This document shows, in pieces, positions 16,596-26,430 of a stretch of 64,000 bases of DNA. A program made the translations under genes and the position numbers. This DNA is from a virus. How positions within the stretch are numbered: the stretch's first letter is position 1; each line of letters opens with the position of its first letter. The notes under the pieces are model-generated. The model was not told the origin of the DNA, searched no databases, and worked only from the letters and a program-made list of their open reading frames with translations. The stretch spans positions 118,740 to 182,739 of IMG/VR virus record IMGVR_UViG_3300024054_000008; one strand, written 5' to 3'.

Positions 16596-16620
16596 TACGC
16601 TGACCAGCCAGTTGTTTTCG
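16596..16620 (-). promoter_or_regulatory. ECF-like promoter CGAAAA-N15-CGTA abutting the tRNA-Val 3' end
   Basis: Motif match followed by GGAGGT. Confidence 0.7.
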
Positions 16621-16621
16621 G

Positions 16622-16693
16622 TGGGCGGGACAGGTTTCGAACCTGCGACATCCGGCTTGTAAGGCCAGCGCTCTGCCGCTGAGCTACCCGCCC
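16622..16693 (-). tRNA. tRNA-Val(UAC)
   Basis: GGGCGGGTAGCTCAGCGGCAGAGCGCTGGCCTTACAAGCCGGATGTCGCAGGTTCGAAACCTGTCCCGCCCA cloverleaf. Confidence 0.95.
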
Positions 16694-19665: not shown

Positions 19666-19845
19666 ATGGAAATCATACATTTCAAAGGTTGTGTTTACCG
19701 GGTGTTCCGGTTCACGGACGGCACGTTCGGTTTCAAGCGAGCCGGTCGTTGGCTGTGGTACACGAACAGCACGACCGCAGCACTCCGTTCAAAAGCTAAG
19801 AAGCATTTCGACAACGACGACATCAGAGAACTTTTGGACGCATGA
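19666..19845 (+). CDS. Small hypothetical protein
   Basis: MEIIHFKG start; + strand run. Confidence 0.5.
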   Translation: MEIIHFKGCVYRVFRFTDGTFGFKRAGRWLWYTNSTTAALRSKAKKHFDNDDIRELLDA

Positions 19846-19854
19846 TCCGCCGAC

Positions 19855-19879
19855 CGGAAACCGAACAGCGGCGTACGTA
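19855..19879 (+). promoter_or_regulatory. ECF-like promoter CGGAAA-N15-CGTA
   Basis: Motif match followed by AGGAG. Confidence 0.6.
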
Positions 19880-19991
19880 CAGGAGACAACAGCGGGCCCG
19901 ACCCCCGACCGAAGTAGGAGGCAGCAACGTGAAAAACAAAAGCTTGGGTGAAGACGTGCGGGTTGCGCCCGCGAGATAGCAACGGCACGCA

Positions 19992-20021
19992 GGCCCCCGT
20001 ATCCCCCTTGGATACGGGGGC
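19992..20021 (+). terminator. Hairpin
   Basis: gcccccgtatcc...ggatacgggggc. Confidence 0.65.
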
Positions 20022-20042
20022 TCATGCGTATCTACCACCAAA

Positions 20043-20067
20043 CGGAGGCGTGTGACGGGTTGTCGTA
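20043..20067 (+). promoter_or_regulatory. ECF-like promoter CGGAGG-N15-CGTA
   Basis: Motif match followed by GGAGGT. Confidence 0.7.
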
Positions 20068-20087
20068 TCCTGGCCCGGAGGTGCGCG

Positions 20088-20402
20088 ATGGTTTTCCCTG
20101 AGTATTCTTCGATCGAGTCCTTTGTGGAGTTCTGCTTGGACGACGACGTCACCGAGTTCTCGCATGAAGATTTGGTAGAACTCAACCGATATCTCCACAT
20201 CCCTATTCACAAATTGAGGGAGATGCTCGAAACCTACGGCATGAGCTTGAAAGAACGACAGGTGCCTCGACAGGTTCGTGGCTTTAGAACAAGTTCACAT
20301 GACCGCTGGTTCGGACCAGGGTCTTGCAAGACCCACGGCGGGTCGGCATTTGGCCAAATGATGGTCTCAAAATACGGATCAAAAGACACGCCGTTTGGCT
20401 GA
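20088..20402 (+). CDS. Conserved phage-type hypothetical protein
   Basis: ATG with SD; EYSSIESFVEFC...VRGFRTSSHDRWFGPG. Confidence 0.75.
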   Translation: MVFPEYSSIESFVEFCLDDDVTEFSHEDLVELNRYLHIPIHKLREMLETYGMSLKERQVPRQVRGFRTSSHDRWFGPGSCKTHGGSAFGQMMVSKYGSKDTPFG

Positions 20403-20458: not shown

Positions 20459-21136
20459 TTACAACTCACCCAATTGACGGACGAGCTGTTCTTTCAAGAG
20501 CTTCTTTTTAAATCCGGGTCGCTTCTTCTCTAGCATTGGAAGAAGTTCGTTGCGAACCCAAACCCGTAGGTATTTTGGATCACTATTGGATGGGTCTGTG
20601 GCATATGGCACAGACCATCGCTTCAGATATCGCATGATTTCTTCACGCGTGACATTGAGCAAAGGCCGGAAAACCGGAATTTCGTTCACCGGTGTGTGAA
20701 GCCGTCTAATTGTTTTCAGATTTCCTTCTCGGATAAGCCCGATGAGAAGATTCTCTGCCTTGTCATCTTCAGTGTGCGCGGTAACAATTACCGCGTGAGA
20801 AAGGCCTCGGGCCGCGGTTCTCAACGCTTCGTAACGGGCCTCACGCGCACGTGCCTGCAAGTTCGGACCTTTGGCAACTTTGATTTTCACGCGACGGAAC
20901 GGAACACCAATTGACTTGGCCAAGTTCTCGGCCAAGTCAAGCTCCTCGTTAGCTTCAGGTCGCAAACCATGATTGACACCAACGGCAATACATCTAGATG
21001 GTCCAACAATATGTGGTATAGATTTGAGCAAACACTGAGAATCAGGACCGCCACTAACCGCAAGCACGAAAGTCTGGTGCTTTAGTTCCCAAGGCAATGC
21101 TAGAAGCGCATCTTTGATTTTGTTATTGATGCTCAT
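20459..21136 (-). CDS. tilS: tRNA(Ile)-lysidine synthase, catalytic domain only
   Basis: PP-loop AVSGGPDS; VNHGLR; AREARY; TAHTEDD; RPLL; DPSN; RVWVRN. Confidence 0.9.
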   Translation of the reverse strand: MSINNKIKDALLALPWELKHQTFVLAVSGGPDSQCLLKSIPHIVGPSRCIAVGVNHGLRPEANEELDLAENLAKSIGVPFRRVKIKVAKGPNLQARAREARYEALRTAARGLSHAVIVTAHTEDDKAENLLIGLIREGNLKTIRRLHTPVNEIPVFRPLLNVTREEIMRYLKRWSVPYATDPSNSDPKYLRVWVRNELLPMLEKKRPGFKKKLLKEQLVRQLGEL

Positions 21137-21138
21137 TA

Positions 21139-21561
21139 TCAGTCCACAATGAGACTCCAAGCGATGACCTGTTCGTCATCTGGAGTCGTCACAACTTCGA
21201 TCCTGAAGTTGTCGCCAAATTCGTTGTTTGGAACGAACCTACGCAACCAACATCTTTCGGCTTGTTTGGTATCTGACGCAGTTTTCTTGAGCAAATCATC
21301 GTCGCACCAACCGGCAACGTCAGTGAGCCAGCCAAACTCAACCGGTTGGTTATTCTTGTAATCGTACTTTGTACAAAGAAGACCTGGCCATTCTTCCTTG
21401 AGGCGCTCTTTGCTTTCACGCTTCCACTGTTTGGTGTCACACCAATCATCCCAATGAATGACTGTGTTTTCGACGAACGCGCTGTTCAAATAGTTTTTGA
21501 TTTCGGGCGTGTTGATCCACCCAGCCATCAACTCACGAAGTTTCTCAGTCGAGAGTTTCAT
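21139..21561 (-). CDS. Trp-rich hypothetical protein
   Basis: Coupled ORF. Confidence 0.7.
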   Translation of the reverse strand: MKLSTEKLRELMAGWINTPEIKNYLNSAFVENTVIHWDDWCDTKQWKRESKERLKEEWPGLLCTKYDYKNNQPVEFGWLTDVAGWCDDDLLKKTASDTKQAERCWLRRFVPNNEFGDNFRIEVVTTPDDEQVIAWSLIVD

Positions 21562-21827
21562 TTGAGCGCATCCTCTATTGCTTGGAGAAGTTCGAACGCC
21601 GGTTTTGCCTTGGATTCTGTTTCGAACCCGTCTGGGAGATTGAAATCGATTTCGTTGTCATCACCAGAGACGTCAATTGTGACGCCGCGATTGTTTTCGA
21701 AATCTTCGATGACAGATTCGGTCTTTTCAAGCACCTCATCGTACGACAAATTATAATTGAAATCCGAAGTCAACGTTCTTCGAACATCATTTTCATCGTC
21801 ATTGAGATAGGTCACGATGAGTTTCAT
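21558..21827 (-). CDS. Acidic hypothetical protein
   Basis: AGAGGA SD; behind promoter 21838-21862. Confidence 0.7.
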   Translation of the reverse strand: MKLIVTYLNDDENDVRRTLTSDFNYNLSYDEVLEKTESVIEDFENNRGVTIDVSGDDNEIDFNLPDGFETESKAKPAFELLQAIEDALK

Positions 21828-21837
21828 GTTTCCTCTG

Positions 21838-21862
21838 TACGTTCAGGATTCCAGGACTTCCT
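21838..21862 (-). promoter_or_regulatory. ECF-like promoter AGGAAG-N15-CGTA embedded in the QEVLES-stop of the upstream gene
   Basis: Motif match overlapping the 3' end of 21843..22106. Confidence 0.55.
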
Positions 21863-22106
21863 GCGTGTAGTCTTCACTGTGATCATTGTAACAAAGTTTG
21901 TATTCGAAAACGGGCGGAAAGTCGTGGATTGGGCCGCCGTCTGAGACGTCGACCATCTCATAAACTCGATCTGGAAACTCTTTGTCAGTCACCAGAGTTT
22001 CGTATGGTACTCGATCTACCCTGAGACCGAGTTTCTCCATCAAGTCCCAAACTTTCTGGAGCTTCACCATCGTTGGATGGTTGTCTCTCAACCGCATACG
22101 CTTCAT
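21843..22106 (-). CDS. Hypothetical protein, C-terminal tag (TQEVLES)
   Basis: ORF with signature. Confidence 0.7.
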   Translation of the reverse strand: MKRMRLRDNHPTMVKLQKVWDLMEKLGLRVDRVPYETLVTDKEFPDRVYEMVDVSDGGPIHDFPPVFEYKLCYNDHSEDYTQEVLES

Positions 22107-22438
22107 TGGTCTCCATCCAGTTTGGAGATTTTCACGAACTTGGTGTTCTTTGCAAAGTCAGCTATCGCCGTCCAGGGTTTTTTAAATGGCCGAGTTGCAA
22201 CGCGGTCCGGCTTGCCACTTTGTGCGAGATTGGAAAACGACGAGTAAACCCTTGGGTAACATTCGGAACAAATGCCCAAAACGCTCCCATTTTTAAAACA
22301 TTTCAGTTTTCCATCAAGAAACAACACGTAAACTGAATCGTCCAAACGGTGGCCCTGGTTTGCCCGGACGTTGGTTGTCATGCACGGGCAGAGAAGTACG
22401 ACTTGACCGTATTTGGCCACAAACTCATTGAGATTCAT
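22103..22438 (-). CDS. Hypothetical protein, EFxxK(Y/F)G family
   Basis: MNLNEFVAKYGQVVLLC; paralog of 22655..22990. Confidence 0.75.
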   Translation of the reverse strand: MNLNEFVAKYGQVVLLCPCMTTNVRANQGHRLDDSVYVLFLDGKLKCFKNGSVLGICSECYPRVYSSFSNLAQSGKPDRVATRPFKKPWTAIADFAKNTKFVKISKLDGDQ

Positions 22439-22605
22439 GTGTGTGCCCCATCAGTTCTGAGCGCTTCTTTCTCTTCGAGACGCTTGGCTCTCCGGTTCAG
22501 GTACTTCTTGATGCGCCGTGTGACTTTGCTCGGCCCGTGGGGAAAGAGACGGCTGGACACGGTCCCACCATCCTCGAAATTGGCAATCTTCTTGTAATTG
22601 CTCAT
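22435..22605 (-). CDS. Small basic protein (56 aa, not in ORF track)
   Basis: MSNYKKIANF...RRIKKYLNRRAKRLEEK; AGGTGG SD; promoter 22624-22648. Confidence 0.65.
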   Translation of the reverse strand: MSNYKKIANFEDGGTVSSRLFPHGPSKVTRRIKKYLNRRAKRLEEKEALRTDGAHT

Positions 22606-22623
22606 GTATCCACCTATGTTCAG

Positions 22624-22648
22624 TACGTCCGGAGCGGGCCGAGCTTCG
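22624..22648 (-). promoter_or_regulatory. ECF-like promoter CGAAGC-N15-CGTA
   Basis: Motif match. Confidence 0.65.
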
Positions 22649-22654
22649 TTTTAT

Positions 22655-22990
22655 CTAAGATGCAAAAATTGACAACGTCTTCAAAAAATCTTCAGTCAGA
22701 TCGCAAATTGGAACAAACATCGTGTCACGTGAATATTCATGTACGACTAGTTTATTGCGTGCTGCTACTCTGTCAACTGCTACTCTGTCAAATAGCGACT
22801 TCATTTTTGGCATACACAGAAGACAAACAGCTTTCACGCAACCATCTTTAGTCAATTGGATTTCACCCTTTGATGTGTGAACGAGAATGAAAATATCGTT
22901 GTTAATCTCATGATGTGAAATCACGAGTTGTGTTTTAGAACACACCAATTCGACTTTTCCGAACTTGGCCTCGAATTCATTAAGTTTCAT
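22655..22990 (-). CDS. Hypothetical protein, EFxxK(Y/F)G family, near-match tag (TLSIFAS)
   Basis: MKLNEFEAKFG...TMFVPICDLTEDFLKT. Confidence 0.75.
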   Translation of the reverse strand: MKLNEFEAKFGKVELVCSKTQLVISHHEINNDIFILVHTSKGEIQLTKDGCVKAVCLLCMPKMKSLFDRVAVDRVAARNKLVVHEYSRDTMFVPICDLTEDFLKTLSIFAS

Positions 22991-23196
22991 GCTTCGAGCA
23001 TCTCCGAAACATCATTTAGTTTATTGGCTTCGCAGCAGGCCTCCAAGTAAGTGTACAGAGAACCAACCACGTACTCGCTGGATGTAAGAAGATGACCTTC
23101 GATGACTGGTCTGTGATGACCAGATCGGTCAACGACCACGTACCAGCACTTCTTTGGTATGTAGGGCTTTGTCCTAATAGGAACGTTTCCTATCAT
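22987..23196 (-). CDS. Small hypothetical protein, near-match tag (VSEMLEA)
   Basis: Start moved to MIGNVP because the longer ORF overlaps a tRNA. Confidence 0.6.
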   Translation of the reverse strand: MIGNVPIRTKPYIPKKCWYVVVDRSGHHRPVIEGHLLTSSEYVVGSLYTYLEACCEANKLNDVSEMLEA

Positions 23197-23211
23197 TCTT
23201 GCACAACATTG

Positions 23212-23295
23212 TGGGCCAGGTGGGACTCGAACCCACAAACCCGAGGGTGGTAGTTTATGAGACTACTGCGTTTGAACCTGTTCCGCCACTGGCCC
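23212..23295 (-). tRNA. tRNA with CAU anticodon on a class II (long variable arm, Leu-like) body; Ile2/Met/Leu identity unresolved
   Basis: GGGCCAGTGGCGGAACAGGTTCAAACGCAGTAGTCTCATAAACTACCACCCTCGGGTTTGTGGGTTCGAGTCCCACCTGGCCCA. Confidence 0.85.
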
Positions 23296-23624: not shown

Positions 23625-23667
23625 TGGTACGTCGGGCCGGGCTCGGTTTGCGTTTGTCGGAAATTTG

Positions 23668-23738
23668 TTGGGGCACTAGGATTCGAACCTAGATTCGAGG
23701 CTCCAAAGGCCTCTGTTCTGCCATTGAACTATGCCCCA
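23668..23738 (-). tRNA. tRNA-Gln(UUG)
   Basis: TGGGGCA/TGCCCCA acceptor; GAGGC-CTTTGGA-GCCTC; GGTTCGAATCC. Confidence 0.95.
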
Positions 23739-23743
23739 AATTG

Positions 23744-23818
23744 TCGGAGTGGAGGGATTTGAACCCACGGTCCTCTCGGACCCAAACCGAGCGCTCTGCC
23801 AGACTGAGCTACACTCCG
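23744..23818 (-). tRNA. tRNA-Pro(UGG)
   Basis: CGGAGTG acceptor; CTCGG-TTTGGGT-CCGAG. Confidence 0.95.
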
Positions 23819-23822
23819 ATAG

Positions 23823-23894
23823 AGCCCTATAGCGGACTTGCGCCGCTCTCTGAGGTTTACAAAACCACTGCATCGCTATCTATGCTTATAGGGC
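23823..23894 (-). tRNA. tRNA-Thr(UGU) with non-canonical T-loop
   Basis: GCCCTAT/ATAGGGC acceptor; loop TTTGTAA; T-arm AGCGG-CGCAAGT-CCGCT. Confidence 0.8.
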
Positions 23895-23898
23895 TTAG

Positions 23899-23971
23899 CA
23901 CCCCCAGAGAGATTCGAACTCCCGACCAAAAGGTTAGAAACCTTCTGCTCTTTCCACTGAGCTATGGGGGC
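23899..23971 (-). tRNA. tRNA-Arg(UCU)
   Basis: GCCCCCA acceptor; GAAGG-TTTCTAA-CCTTT. Confidence 0.95.
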
Positions 23972-24033: not shown

Positions 24034-24720
24034 TTAAGAATCTTTTTTATCTTTGACTATCTTATCCAGTGCTTCATTTTCAGTTTCTGACAAGAATTTG
24101 CGAACTTCGCTCAAATCAGGTTTCGATTTGAGCCAAATACTCAAAATGTCCGGAGCGTCTTTTGCTTCGCGGCTTGGATTGTTTACCAAGGCCTGGACTT
24201 TGAGCCCAATCAGCGCGGCTGCTGAAACTACCGGGACTTTATGCCCGAGAACCATGTGCTCTTCAGCTGTTGACAATGCCAATTGTTTGAGTGGGTCAGT
24301 TGCGGTCAACAATTCGACTTGGCCGTTCTTTCGATGGTCGATAGTCAGGACTGTCCCAGTGCTTGATTTTGCTTTGTAAAAAGCAAATTTTTCCATGTAT
24401 CGTGGGTCGCTGAGTTTGTCAGACGGTGGCAACTCTGAGACCAGAACGTCAATGTCGTCGGTGTTACGGATTACGCCATGAATAATCAATGCAACAGCGC
24501 CAATAACAGCAAAATCAATTTGATTGTCCTTCAAAAGATTTGACAAACCAGACATCACAGATGATTCTGGGACTGAACCATGTAAAGAACGACCACGAAG
24601 TTCGTGCACAGCTTCAATGATTTCGTCAGCTTCTTTTTCGTGTCCATAGTCGTCAGCAATCTTGTGAGCAATCCGCACAAGGTTTTGCATCAACTCTGAG
24701 CTGTTTCTGAATTCAGTCAC
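24034..24720 (-). CDS. Nucleotidyltransferase (AbiEii/DUF6036-like, pol-beta fold)
   Basis: FAVIGAVALIIHGVIRNTDDIDVLV; LIGLKVQA; KDAPDI. Confidence 0.8.
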   Translation of the reverse strand: MTEFRNSSELMQNLVRIAHKIADDYGHEKEADEIIEAVHELRGRSLHGSVPESSVMSGLSNLLKDNQIDFAVIGAVALIIHGVIRNTDDIDVLVSELPPSDKLSDPRYMEKFAFYKAKSSTGTVLTIDHRKNGQVELLTATDPLKQLALSTAEEHMVLGHKVPVVSAAALIGLKVQALVNNPSREAKDAPDILSIWLKSKPDLSEVRKFLSETENEALDKIVKDKKDS

Positions 24721-24735
24721 GTCGAACTCATTTTG

Positions 24736-24820
24736 CGGAGAATGAGGGATTCGAACCCCCGGTACGTTGCCGTACGGCGGTTTTCAAAACCGCTGCCTTA
24801 GACCACTCGGCCAATTCTCC
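24736..24820 (-). tRNA. tRNA-Ser(UGA)
   Basis: GGAGAAT acceptor; GCGGT-TTTGAAA-ACCGC; long variable arm; G73. Confidence 0.95.
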
Positions 24821-24821
24821 G

Positions 24822-24893
24822 TGACCCCAGCGAGAATCGAACTCGCCTTTACGGGATGAAAACCCGTTGTCCTGACCGATAGACGATGGGGCC
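24822..24893 (-). tRNA. tRNA-Glu(UUC)
   Basis: GGCCCCA acceptor; ACGGG-TTTTCAT-CCCGT. Confidence 0.95.
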
Positions 24894-24900
24894 GTGTATA

Positions 24901-25455
24901 TCATTTTATTTTGTAATTCTTATATTTTACGTTCGTGGTTATGGTCTTTTGATTTTTAACTTCTGAAAATGGAATCAACCACATATCCTCATTAAAACTC
25001 ACAAGACAAACAAAATCGCATTCAGAATCAGCATACTTAATTCGTCGAACACCTTTTGTGTTAGTCCTAACCCTTTGAATGGAGAAAACAAAGTGGCCTT
25101 TTGGTTTGTGTGTTGATGTTTTGATTTGCACTTTTTTAAAATCACCAATAACTGGTGACGAAACCAACAAATCGAATGACGACCCTAACTCCGGTGAGAG
25201 AACTGTTGCACCACTTAGTATAAATATGTATTTAACATAATATTCAGCAGCTTTCCTGAAAAGCTGATGGTCTTTATTAAGATCATAACTGTGTTGCAAC
25301 TTTGGCAATAAATGGAAATTTTTATCGCGTTTCAAACCGAGTTTCCTAAATCTTTTGAAAACTGAAGCCTGATGCTTTACTCCGAGTTTTGAGGCTATTA
25401 ACCTCGCACCCAAACCAGTTTCCCACAATTTCTTTATTTCTGAGTCTAATTCTCT
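24901..25455 (-). CDS. PD-(D/E)XK homing-type endonuclease with N-terminal HTH-like segment; start codon unresolved (frame stays open through the tRNA 3' exon and intron to 25755)
   Basis: AAEYYV...FDLLV...KVQIKTS...YADSECDFVCLV...WLIP resembles group I intron-associated PD-(D/E)XK nucleases. Confidence 0.75.
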   Translation of the reverse strand, partial: RELDSEIKKLWETGLGARLIASKLGVKHQASVFKRFRKLGLKRDKNFHLLPKLQHSYDLNKDHQLFRKAAEYYVKYIFILSGATVLSPELGSSFDLLVSSPVIGDFKKVQIKTSTHKPKGHFVFSIQRVRTNTKGVRRIKYADSECDFVCLVSFNEDMWLIPFSEVKNQKTITTNVKYKNYKIK

Positions 25456-25806
25456 TGGTCGGCCCTGAGGGACTTGAACCCTCACGCCTTTCGGCGAAGG
25501 ATTTTCTTCACCACTTTGACTTTCGTCAACCACCGATTGGTGTTGTGGTCCGGACTGTATCATCGCCCTCGTCTTTACGTTAGGGCGCCCCGAGCGCGAG
25601 TCTCTGAACCTTCCCCCGTTCTGGGGGCTCGGCTGCTGATTGCCCAATCCGACTTGTTTTTTGCCTTCACGCTTCCCGTTCCCAGGTACGTTGTGGCCAG
25701 GTCGGCTATTAGGGGTTTCCAGCAATTTCCGGGGTTCCATTCTGTGGTTTCTCACAGACGGTTCAATTTGTTAAATCCTCTGCGTCTGCCATTCCGCCAA
25801 GGGCCG
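25456..25806 (-). tRNA. tRNA-Leu(UAA) split by a group I intron (exons 25773-25806 and 25456-25505)
   Basis: Joined exons give CGGCCCT/AGGGCCG-ACCA acceptor and GAGGA-TTTAAAA-TCCTT anticodon arm. Confidence 0.92.
25506..25772 (-). mobile_element. Group I intron (267 nt) after U34 of tRNA-Leu(UAA)
   Basis: P AAATTGCTGGAAACCC, Q GGGCAATCAGCAGCC, R GTTCAGAGACT, S ATGATACAGTCC; follows U, ends in G. Confidence 0.9.
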
Positions 25807-26115: not shown

Positions 26116-26430
26116 TGGGAGATCTGGGGTTCGAACCCAGGACCTTAGGATTACCTACCGCACCGTCTTTCAACGGCTGCTTTTGCATTGCGGTCTGGAC
26201 CATATCATCACCTTCGACTTCACGTTAAGGTGTCTCGCGTATGGCCTCTGAGGACTCTCTCCATTCGGAGGTTGCCTGCTGATTGCCCACGTATCTCAAA
26301 GATTGTTACGTCTTCACGTACTTTGAGCTTTAGGGTGTTCCAGCATACAGCGAGATTTTCTGGCTTCGTATTTCTACGAAGTGATTCCATTTTGAAAATC
26401 CTCTGCTCTAACCGGCTGAGCTAATCTCCC
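26116..26430 (-). tRNA. tRNA-Lys(UUU), probable, split by a group I intron (exons 26395-26430 and 26116-26153)
   Basis: GGGAGAT/ATCTCCC-A acceptor; TTAGCTCAG D-arm; joined loop TTTT+TAA; Thr(UGU) is the alternative if both splice sites shift by one base. Confidence 0.8.
26154..26394 (-). mobile_element. Group I intron (241 nt), ORF-less
   Basis: P TGTATGCTGGAACACCC, Q GGGCAATCAGCAGG, R CCTCAGAGGCCA, S ATGATATGGTCC; P3 CTCGC/GCGAG. Confidence 0.88.

Follow-up and report, generated by a model that had tools for sequence, protein, structure and literature searches.

We analysed a 64,000-nucleotide stretch of viral DNA (the window; positions 118,740 to 182,739 of IMG/VR record IMGVR_UViG_3300024054_000008), which is the final 64 kb of a single-contig phage genome of 182,739 bp with 38.8% GC, rated 43% complete by CheckV. 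The window encodes a tRNA with the anticodon CAU and the long variable arm of a class II tRNA, together with a TilS enzyme reduced to its catalytic domain, here called mini-TilS. The reading that we favour, and consider rather probable, is that the two form a portable AUA-decoding pair in which a class II tRNA of tRNA-Leu descent would be lysidinylated and charged with isoleucine. The original prediction, made from the sequence alone, had offered two alternatives, namely an unusual tRNA-Ile2 served by the phage TilS or a tRNA inserting leucine at AUA or AUG codons, and this interpretation holds in part. The first alternative is favoured because the tRNA is linked to mini-TilS in independent phage lineages, AUA is heavily used, and the AUA sites of the phage behave like isoleucine sites. 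The second is disfavoured, since AUA and AUG sites carry no Leu-codon signature and a separate tRNA-Leu(UAA) is present. Lysidine formation, charging with isoleucine, rejection by leucyl-tRNA synthetase (LeuRS), the identity of the host and a horizontal replacement of the tRNA are all inferred here from sequence comparisons.

A class II tRNA with a CAU anticodon

ARAGORN identified a tRNA with anticodon cat at 23211-23295, and the Rfam model RF00005 matched 23212-23295 along the full model (1-71) with 57.2 bits, the gathering score being 29 (E = 1.7e-10). Both place the gene on the minus strand, which had not been given previously. The acceptor stem GGGCCAG/CUGGCCC contains C4-G69 and C5-G68 as well as G1-C72 and G2-C71, and is followed by the discriminator A73. 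After U8 and G9, the D arm GCGG-AACAGGUUCAA-ACGC forms three Watson-Crick pairs and G13.A22, with A14 and A15. The anticodon stem GUAGU/ACUAC closes the loop CUCAUAA, which includes A37 and A38, and the T arm reads GUGGG-UUCGAGU-CCCAC. The variable region of 13 nt, C-ACC-CUCG-GGU-UU, has an ACC/GGU stem and a CUCG loop, and its final U is position 48. With at least 10 nt and a stem-loop of its own in this region the tRNA belongs to class II, and it does not match the class I body with a variable loop of 4-5 nt found in all described tRNA-Ile2. It does not carry a Leu anticodon (NAG or YAA), and at the 3' end A73 is followed by CAA, not CCA.

The minimum-free-energy fold is the exact five-helix class II cloverleaf. 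The structural details on which the original prediction was built (the anticodon loop, the long arm, the Leu-like D arm, A15:U48, A73 and C4-G69/C5-G68) were all recovered by ARAGORN, Rfam and the fold. Five independent assemblies of the phage, from different samples, agree in every base of the tRNA and of 40 nt to either side, which excludes an assembly or sequencing error. An initiator tRNA-fMet was also considered; initiators leave 1-72 unpaired and have a run of three G-C pairs at the lower end of the anticodon stem, and the paired G1-C72 and the anticodon stem GUAGU/ACUAC rule this out.

A TilS reduced to its catalytic domain

The catalytic-domain-only TilS described 2 kb from the tRNA is indeed present, downstream on the same strand. 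The ORF at 20459-21160 (minus strand) matched PF01171 with 143 bits and TIGR02432 (lysidine_TilS_N) with 149 bits against a cut-off of 93.6. Public gene calls start the protein at an ATG eight codons in, giving 225 amino acids (20459..21136), and the TTG-extended ORF reaches 21160. The protein aligned only to the N-terminal catalytic PP-loop domain of the known structures, covering residues 14-209 of 433 in 1ni5, 21-220 of 464 in 3a2k and 27-225 of 317 in 1wy5, the TilS structures of E. coli, Geobacillus and Aquifex aeolicus. The motifs SGGPDS, TAHTEDDKAEN, RPLL and DPSN are intact, and SGGPDS and the other conserved motifs are invariant in 29 homologues.

A Pfam scan of the protein found no TilS_C or substrate-binding domain, while longer homologues have PF11734 and PF09179. 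For a C-terminal domain split off downstream, the ORF at 19823-20200 gave no Pfam match, the smaller ORFs beside the stop codon not being part of that scan. The closest homologues, with up to 58% identity, are all 217-270 amino acids long and lie on large phage-like contigs. TilS of full length, which have the C-terminal Pfam domains, stand farther off (44% identity or less), and those with a name come mostly from Myxococcota. Among cellular TilS with a named source, the nearest belong without exception to Myxococcota, with 37-41% identity, a similarity that is suggestive only as a pointer to the host.

Type I TilS consist of the N-terminal domain followed by two C-terminal domains (CTD1 and CTD2), and type II TilS of the N-terminal domain and CTD1; in the E. 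coli type of enzyme it is the second C-terminal domain that reads C4-G69 and C5-G68 (PMC11947777). The original prediction had pointed to these two base pairs as TilS elements. This part does not stand, because the domain that reads them is missing from the phage enzyme in the PDB alignments and they would not be recognised in the known way; they could instead be relevant to isoleucyl-tRNA synthetase (IleRS). The further suggestion of the original prediction, that such a tRNA perhaps evades host tRNA nucleases, is speculative. A literature search of incomplete coverage brought up neither a class II CAU tRNA nor a TilS made of the catalytic domain alone.

A conserved family of long-arm CAU tRNAs

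A search pattern built on the Leu-type D arm, the anticodon loop CUCAUAA, a stretch of 17 nt or more ahead of the T arm, and GGTTCRA matched 4 viral contigs, 60 metagenome contigs and, among 185,579 prokaryotic species genomes, one contig of a Chloroflexota metagenome-assembled genome. Single-protein and exact-motif scans of the viral contigs gave no matches, while an alignment-based scan and structure-aware patterns did retrieve loci. The GGCGGAA D arm of the window tRNA is shared by 24 matches (17 distinct sequences). The closest relatives of the window tRNA are other CAU members, at 84-87% identity, and all tRNA-Leu are farther away.

Among 16 distinct family members, all metagenomic and from phage-like contigs, 99.2% of the alignment cells at paired positions hold standard pairs. 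Changes on both sides of a pair were found in 15 of 23 pairs, in the acceptor, anticodon, variable and T helices, including two of the three pairs of the variable arm (n=16). None of 500 shuffles reached the family values, and partners slid out of register paired in 29-48% of cases. The loop of the variable arm is CUCG, UUCG, GAAA or UUU across the family, and a second anticodon arm displaying GAU is thus absent.

We then left the anticodon stem-loop free in a pattern of the family-specific body, and in 2.9 million viral contigs this returned CAU in 3/3 cases. A Leu anticodon in relatives, which the original prediction had named as the finding that would speak for a single-base error or a pseudogene, was not seen in this anticodon-blind search of the body, where CAU copies alone came back. 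A looser anticodon-free pattern of the D and T arms retrieved 79 viral tRNAs, of which 78 are tRNA-Leu and one is a UUA suppressor. The body type is therefore that of tRNA-Leu, yet the lineage of the window tRNA carries CAU. Judged by these alignments, the long-arm CAU tRNA is a conserved family and not an error or pseudogene.

Further long-arm CAU tRNAs were observed. The Chloroflexota match (L043, JADFKX010000036.1, 2635-2718, minus strand) has an HD-GAF protein and a kinase-like protein as neighbours and may be truly cellular. The tRNAs at L083:1772-1860 and L073:2059-2144 have ordinary tRNA-Leu bodies (e.g. GGUAGACGC) that cluster with tRNA-Leu(CAA), and look like independent conversions from Leu to CAU. 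Finally, the metagenome loci L044, L045, L048, L070, L096, L097, L100 and about 20 more form a second long-arm group with a GGCAGAA D arm and a 4-bp UUCG-type variable hairpin. These are on algal plastid contigs with rbcL, atpA, rpoA, rpl2 and rps3, near rpl2 and beside a 72-nt CAU tRNA. From its position and D arm, this group looks like a plastid trnI(CAU) that acquired a long arm.

Linkage of the tRNA to tilS

A profile of TilS homologues detected a short TilS ORF (206-221 amino acids between stops) in 7 long-arm loci, two of which were confirmed by the curated model TIGR02432. The tRNA and tilS are separated by 42 nt in L052 and L090, by 114 nt in L082 and by 2-5 kb in the others of these 7; many long-arm loci without a TilS match are only 1-4 kb in length. 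Elsewhere in phages TilS is rare. It was matched in 13 of 50,697 phage records (tblastn, E <= 1e-5), several of which seem to be pieces of bacterial DNA, and at 22 loci in the 2.9 million viral contigs. In this wider viral set a class I tRNA(CAU) was often found just upstream of tilS, for example in L009, L019, L026 and L030. On the evidence of gene order, a tRNA(CAU)-tilS module is a general feature of large phages.

A megablast of 5 kb against the 50,697 phage records found no close cultured-phage relative. The relatives that we did identify, G005 (66% GC), G007 (40% GC) and G008 (46% GC), have 65-74 genes in common with the phage at 45-49% amino-acid identity. The TilS of G005, G007, G008, L003 and L006 are short and 42-58% identical to the phage TilS, and a tRNA(CAU) of class I size lies directly upstream of tilS in G005/L008 and in L003, about 3 kb away in L006 and about 10 kb away in G008. 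The tRNA(CAU) upstream of the closest TilS homologue (L003:9952-10030) has the T arm and the acceptor pattern of the long-arm family together with a 6-nt variable loop and the anticodon loop CUCAUAU, and may be intermediate between class I and class II forms. In G005 (L224-L237) the tRNA(CAU) at 139277-139354 is one of just two tRNAs in 273 kb. AUA is rare in this relative, with 25 aligned ATA sites versus 610 ATC sites, yet the tRNA(CAU)-tilS module has been kept, so that the supply of a codon may not be its whole explanation.

The other long-arm phages present the opposite combination. Their TilS share no more than 23-32% identity with the phage TilS, while 82-87% identity links their tRNAs to the window tRNA. 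On these identities, the simplest reading seems to be that the phage kept the tilS of its lineage and swapped an ancestral class I tRNA(CAU) for a long-arm one from another phage lineage. Such a replacement implies that two distant mini-TilS lineages serve the same kind of tRNA, which would fit an enzyme that sees the anticodon arm only. We also considered the long arm as a handle needed by mini-TilS, and rejected this as the main idea; the closest homologues of the phage enzyme pair with class I CAU tRNAs, and those of the long-arm phages are only distant from it.

The meaning of AUA in the phage

Codons were counted in 251 greedily chosen ORFs that cover 90% of the genome. AUA usage had been suggested as a check, and ATA is indeed heavily used, with 26.0 per 1000 codons and 38% of isoleucine codons, compared with 16.5 per 1000 for ATG. 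A search with PF00133 for a phage IleRS, LeuRS, ValRS or MetRS found none in the contig, with its completeness of 43%.

The meaning of the codon was assessed by aligning the phage proteins to those of relatives and tabulating the residue of the relatives for each phage codon. At ATA sites (n=1660) the relatives have isoleucine with a frequency of 0.39, valine 0.19, leucine 0.15 and methionine 0.04. These values resemble those at ATT sites (n=1775; I 0.36, V 0.21, L 0.14) and ATC sites (n=503; I 0.40, V 0.16, L 0.19). Sites of the leucine codons (n=263-1409 each) have leucine with a frequency of 0.52-0.63, and ATG sites (n=1032) have methionine with a frequency of 0.39. The result was the same with the ATA codons of the subject sequences left out. 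As a log-likelihood, the ATA profile scores -3095 for isoleucine, -3460 for valine, -3780 for leucine and -4039 for methionine. Where three relatives agree, ATA sites have 35% isoleucine, 21% leucine and 20% valine (n=71) and ATT sites 51% isoleucine and 13% leucine (n=78), while leucine codons have 88-100% leucine. Because ATA sites match the relatives in the manner of ATT and ATC sites, and unlike leucine or methionine codons, AUA is, as read from these alignments, an isoleucine codon for the phage.

Departures from tRNA-Leu and identity elements

A blastn search of the 50,697 phage records with the window tRNA gave distant matches only, to tRNA-Leu genes at 75-77% identity. For a comparison, we set the family beside 74 distinct tRNA-Leu of phages with the same D- and T-arm pattern. 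The base before the 3' strand of the D stem (ACGC) is G in 74/74 tRNA-Leu and A in 15/16 family members, including the window tRNA. The base before U48 is G in 66/74 tRNA-Leu and U in 16/16 family members, and the D loop of the family is longer by one to two nucleotides after G19. The phage's own tRNA-Leu(UAA), a control from the same genome, has the Leu state at both positions (AGACGC, and G before U48) and the shorter D loop. Both positions lie in the tertiary core that is read by the E. coli LeuRS. It is plausible, as a conjecture from these alignments, that the changes are anti-determinants against LeuRS.

The elements of E. coli tRNA-Ile2 used by IleRS and TilS are reportedly A73, C4-G69, C5-G68, U12-A23 and C29-G41, work ascribed to Nureki in 1994 and Ikeda in 2005; the TilS part is treated in PMC11947777. 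Elements compatible with isoleucine identity are A73, A37, A38 and C4-G69 (13/16 members). Of the E. coli list, the window copy has A73, C4-G69 and C5-G68 and departs from it at 12-23 and 29-41. In the comparison with tRNA-Leu, the family was also marked by G2-C71 and mostly G1.U72.

We propose that the pair functions as follows. The tRNA would be transcribed with C34-A35-U36, and the phage TilS would then convert C34 to lysidine (k2C); because both C-terminal domains are absent, this enzyme would be able to read the anticodon arm only. The resulting k2C-A-U anticodon would pair with AUA and not with AUG, and together with A37, A38 and A73 it would make the tRNA a substrate of the host IleRS, with the result that AUA is decoded as isoleucine. 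The body is of tRNA-Leu type and probably arose from a tRNA-Leu through a change of anticodon, after which the D loop and the junction of the variable arm with the T stem would have diverged from true tRNA-Leu in a manner that may keep LeuRS off. The purpose may be found in the composition of the phage, which is AT-rich (39% GC, AUA 26 per 1000) and probably lives in a GC-rich host where AUA decoding would be scarce.

Neighbouring genes and the tRNA cluster

Small ORFs on the same strand occupy the region between the tRNA and tilS (21139..22990, minus strand), with ends that abut or overlap in the ORF list and in the gene calls on L031/L032. None gave a Pfam match, and they possibly form one transcription unit.

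The other tRNA genes of the window are also on the minus strand. A cluster at 23667..23971, found with ARAGORN and Rfam, consists of Gln(UUG), Pro(UGG), a weak tRNA and Arg(UCU), reading CAA, CCA and AGA in the three clear cases. The weak one (23823-23894) was found by Rfam only, with 40.7 bits, and went unnoticed by ARAGORN; its D arm is irregular, and its anticodon is probably UGU (Thr, reading ACA). Both programs also identified Ser(UGA) and Glu(UUC) at 24735..24893, which read UCA and GAA, and Val(UAC) at 16620..16693, which reads GUA. The tRNA-Leu(UAA) for UUA, at 25456..25806, is split by a group I intron at about 25506-25772 (Rfam Intron_gpI, 58.1 bits), and ARAGORN recognised its spliced exons as a clean 84-nt tRNA(taa) that encodes CCA. 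The intron is inserted after U34, which is also the site of the tRNA-Leu intron in cyanobacteria and plastids. A second intron-split tRNA, probably Lys(UUU) reading AAA, lies at 26118..26430 (Intron_gpI at 26177-26405, 58.7 bits); trial splicing gave no exact junction for it.

Every confidently assigned tRNA of these clusters reads a codon ending in A, and the two weaker calls probably do likewise. The CAU tRNA therefore fits among them only as a lysidine-modified reader of AUA.

An ORF inside the cluster (24034-24720, minus strand) has weak matches to DUF6036/AbiEii nucleotidyltransferases. An ORF for a PD-(D/E)XK endonuclease (listed as 24901-25755) abuts the tRNA-Leu(UAA), but probably does not begin in truth until downstream of this tRNA. 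Beyond the window, the same phage has an ARAGORN tRNA with anticodon CUA, labelled Pyl (G000:C1:102253-102327, plus strand), which could be an amber suppressor.

Weighing the proposed AUA-decoding pair against other explanations

Several points weigh against an AUA-decoding pair. On the side of the tRNA, the invariance of the anticodon loop among the 16 members is partly built in, since the retrieval pattern demanded CTCATAA, and the anticodon-blind test of the family body rests on 3 sequences. The window body has the E. coli LeuRS features A73, A15-U48, G18G19 and a Leu-type D stem, and LeuRS does not use the anticodon; on first principles, leucylation is therefore plausible. The window copy is also without two of the E. 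coli IleRS elements, having G12-C23 in place of U12-A23 and A29-U41 in place of C29-G41 (in the family, 12-23 is G-C in 16/16 members and 29-41 is C-G in 12/16), and an unmodified CAU is a strong determinant for methionyl-tRNA synthetase (MetRS). On the side of the codon, the sites where relatives agree show somewhat more leucine at ATA (15/71) than at ATT (10/78), as raw counts from small samples. The proteome signature reflects long-term selection on AUA and would miss a weakly expressed miscoding tRNA if the host tRNA-Ile2 is the main decoder, and with the contig 43% complete there may be further CAU tRNAs in the unseen part. On the side of the enzyme, G007, L001, L007 and L010 carry tilS without a CAU tRNA nearby, and for this reason the host tRNA-Ile2 may be a further, or even the main, substrate of TilS.

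The last point leads to the explanation that survives best among the alternatives, although we regard it as unlikely, namely that the tRNA is an elongator tRNA-Met with an odd body, whose unmodified C34 would let it be charged by MetRS and read AUG, while the phage TilS would act on the tRNA-Ile2 of the host. CAU is the dominant determinant for MetRS, and unmodified tRNA-Ile2 is a MetRS substrate (PMC12514573). The presence of A73 and G2-C71 is in keeping with such a role, and the tilS-bearing relatives with no CAU tRNA in reach indicate that TilS can be useful without a phage tRNA. A reader of AUG would however be the odd one out among the confidently assigned cluster tRNAs with their A-ending codons, and it would serve a codon that is less used than ATA. 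In addition, the spacing of 42-114 nt in L052, L090 and L082 and, in relatives, the place of a class I tRNA(CAU) immediately ahead of tilS point to an enzyme-substrate pair.

Miscoding by the tRNA appears quite unlikely to us. Here LeuRS would charge the Leu-type body, and leucine would be inserted at AUA if the tRNA is lysidinylated or at AUG if it is unmodified, as deliberate or tolerated mistranslation in the manner of the nematode nev-tRNAs. A precedent exists in the class II nev-tRNA-Ile(UAU), which was charged with leucine only, in vitro (PMC3333845). The best database matches of the window tRNA are annotated as tRNA-Leu, as are 78 of the 79 viral tRNAs of the same pattern by their anticodons, and A73, A15-U48 and G18G19 are all in place. 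The small excess of leucine at the ATA sites conserved in three relatives (21% versus 13% for ATT, from small samples) also goes in this direction. Against this, ATA sites as a whole resemble ATT and ATC sites and not those of leucine codons, ATG sites resemble methionine sites, and systematic leucine at 26 AUA per 1000 codons would touch almost every protein. The family differs from 74/74 tRNA-Leu at the D-loop position, and also in D-loop length and in the base before U48. A true tRNA-Leu(UAA) is already present in the phage, and the recurrent linkage to TilS is hard to explain if leucine insertion is the aim. A related possibility, which we think distinctly improbable, is that the host LeuRS charges the body while mini-TilS retargets it to AUA, which would make the tRNA the counterpart of the nev-tRNAs in the bacterial world. 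This would amount to a programmed statistical recoding of some AUA codons as leucine in the course of infection, under the control of the phage, by a portable two-gene cassette.

Last, the absence of any decoding role, with the gene as a decaying tRNA-Leu(CAA) that underwent an A36-to-U change or as a tRNA-like decoy, primer or nuclease bait, is very improbable. In its favour, CAU is one substitution from the Leu anticodon CAA, and in L083 and L073 an ordinary tRNA-Leu body seems to have been converted separately and recently. Against it, the family is conserved among divergent phages, its cloverleaf is perfect and compensatory changes occur in four of its helices; the gene is also identical in five samples, and CAU is the sole anticodon found on the family-specific body.

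Significance

Textbooks restrict the long variable arm to Leu, Ser, Tyr (in bacteria) and Sec tRNAs, describe tRNA-Ile2 as class I, and regard one or more extra domains as necessary for TilS to select its tRNA. If the AUA-decoding pair is real, a class II tRNA with isoleucine identity occurs naturally in phages and breaks the long-arm rule, and it would show that identity can change from leucine to isoleucine through the anticodon and a few changes in the core. Its partner would be a minimal TilS of about 220 amino acids, raising the question of how an enzyme that sees only the anticodon arm spares tRNA-Met. The two genes would make a compact, portable AUA cassette, of use as an orthogonal pair in the reassignment of codons and wherever AT-rich genes are to be expressed in a GC-rich host. 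Were the tRNA charged with leucine instead, it would be the first phage case of programmed sense-codon miscoding.

Comparison with known systems

The Pseudomonas jumbo phages MIJ3 and PA5oct encode TilS; no tRNA partner has been proposed for them and no long-arm tRNA is mentioned in their description (PMC6892783). They resemble the present phage in being large AT-rich phages of a GC-rich host with tilS and several tRNAs annotated as Met (PMC6892783), and differ in that their TilS were not among the tblastn matches to the phage TilS at E <= 1e-5.

The ordinary plastid trnI(CAU) has a D arm of the type UGGCUGAAUGGUUAAAGC, similar to that of the window tRNA. It belongs to a separate lineage with the GGCAGAA D arm, is encoded in organelle genomes, and has no adjacent mini-TilS.

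Nematode nev-tRNA-Ile(UAU) is a class II tRNA with a body derived from tRNA-Leu and an anticodon of the Ile box (PMC3333845, PMC4300185), and the phage tRNA likewise joins a class II, Leu-type body to an Ile-box anticodon. The nev-tRNA is eukaryotic, has the anticodon UAU and has been shown by experiment to be charged with leucine, whereas the phage tRNA has CAU, is linked to TilS and corresponds to AUA sites that are Ile-like.

With phage and bacterial tRNA-Leu (UAA/CAA), the phage tRNA shares U8-G9, the D arm GGCGGAA...ACGC, A15-U48, A73, a long variable arm and the T arm GGGUUCGA. Its variable arm is shorter than that of tRNA-Leu, with 3 bp and a tetraloop.

The type II TilS of Aquifex aeolicus (1wy5) also does without CTD2, so that it likewise cannot use C4-G69 and C5-G68. 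The Aquifex enzyme, of 317 amino acids, keeps CTD1, whereas the phage protein stops at the equivalent of residue 225.

The nearest functional counterpart is the bacterial tRNA-Ile2(CAU)/TilS system (ileX/tilS in E. coli). The phage tRNA differs from bacterial tRNA-Ile2 in being class II, in its Leu-type D arm and in G12-C23, which replaces U12-A23, and the phage enzyme is without both C-terminal domains, which reach the anticodon stem or elbow and the acceptor stem. The two systems have in common the CUCAUAA loop, A73, C4-G69 and C5-G68 in the tRNA, and the PP-loop domain with SGGxDS, TAHxxDD, RPL and DPSN in the enzyme, and we propose that they also share the same task, the reading of AUA as isoleucine.

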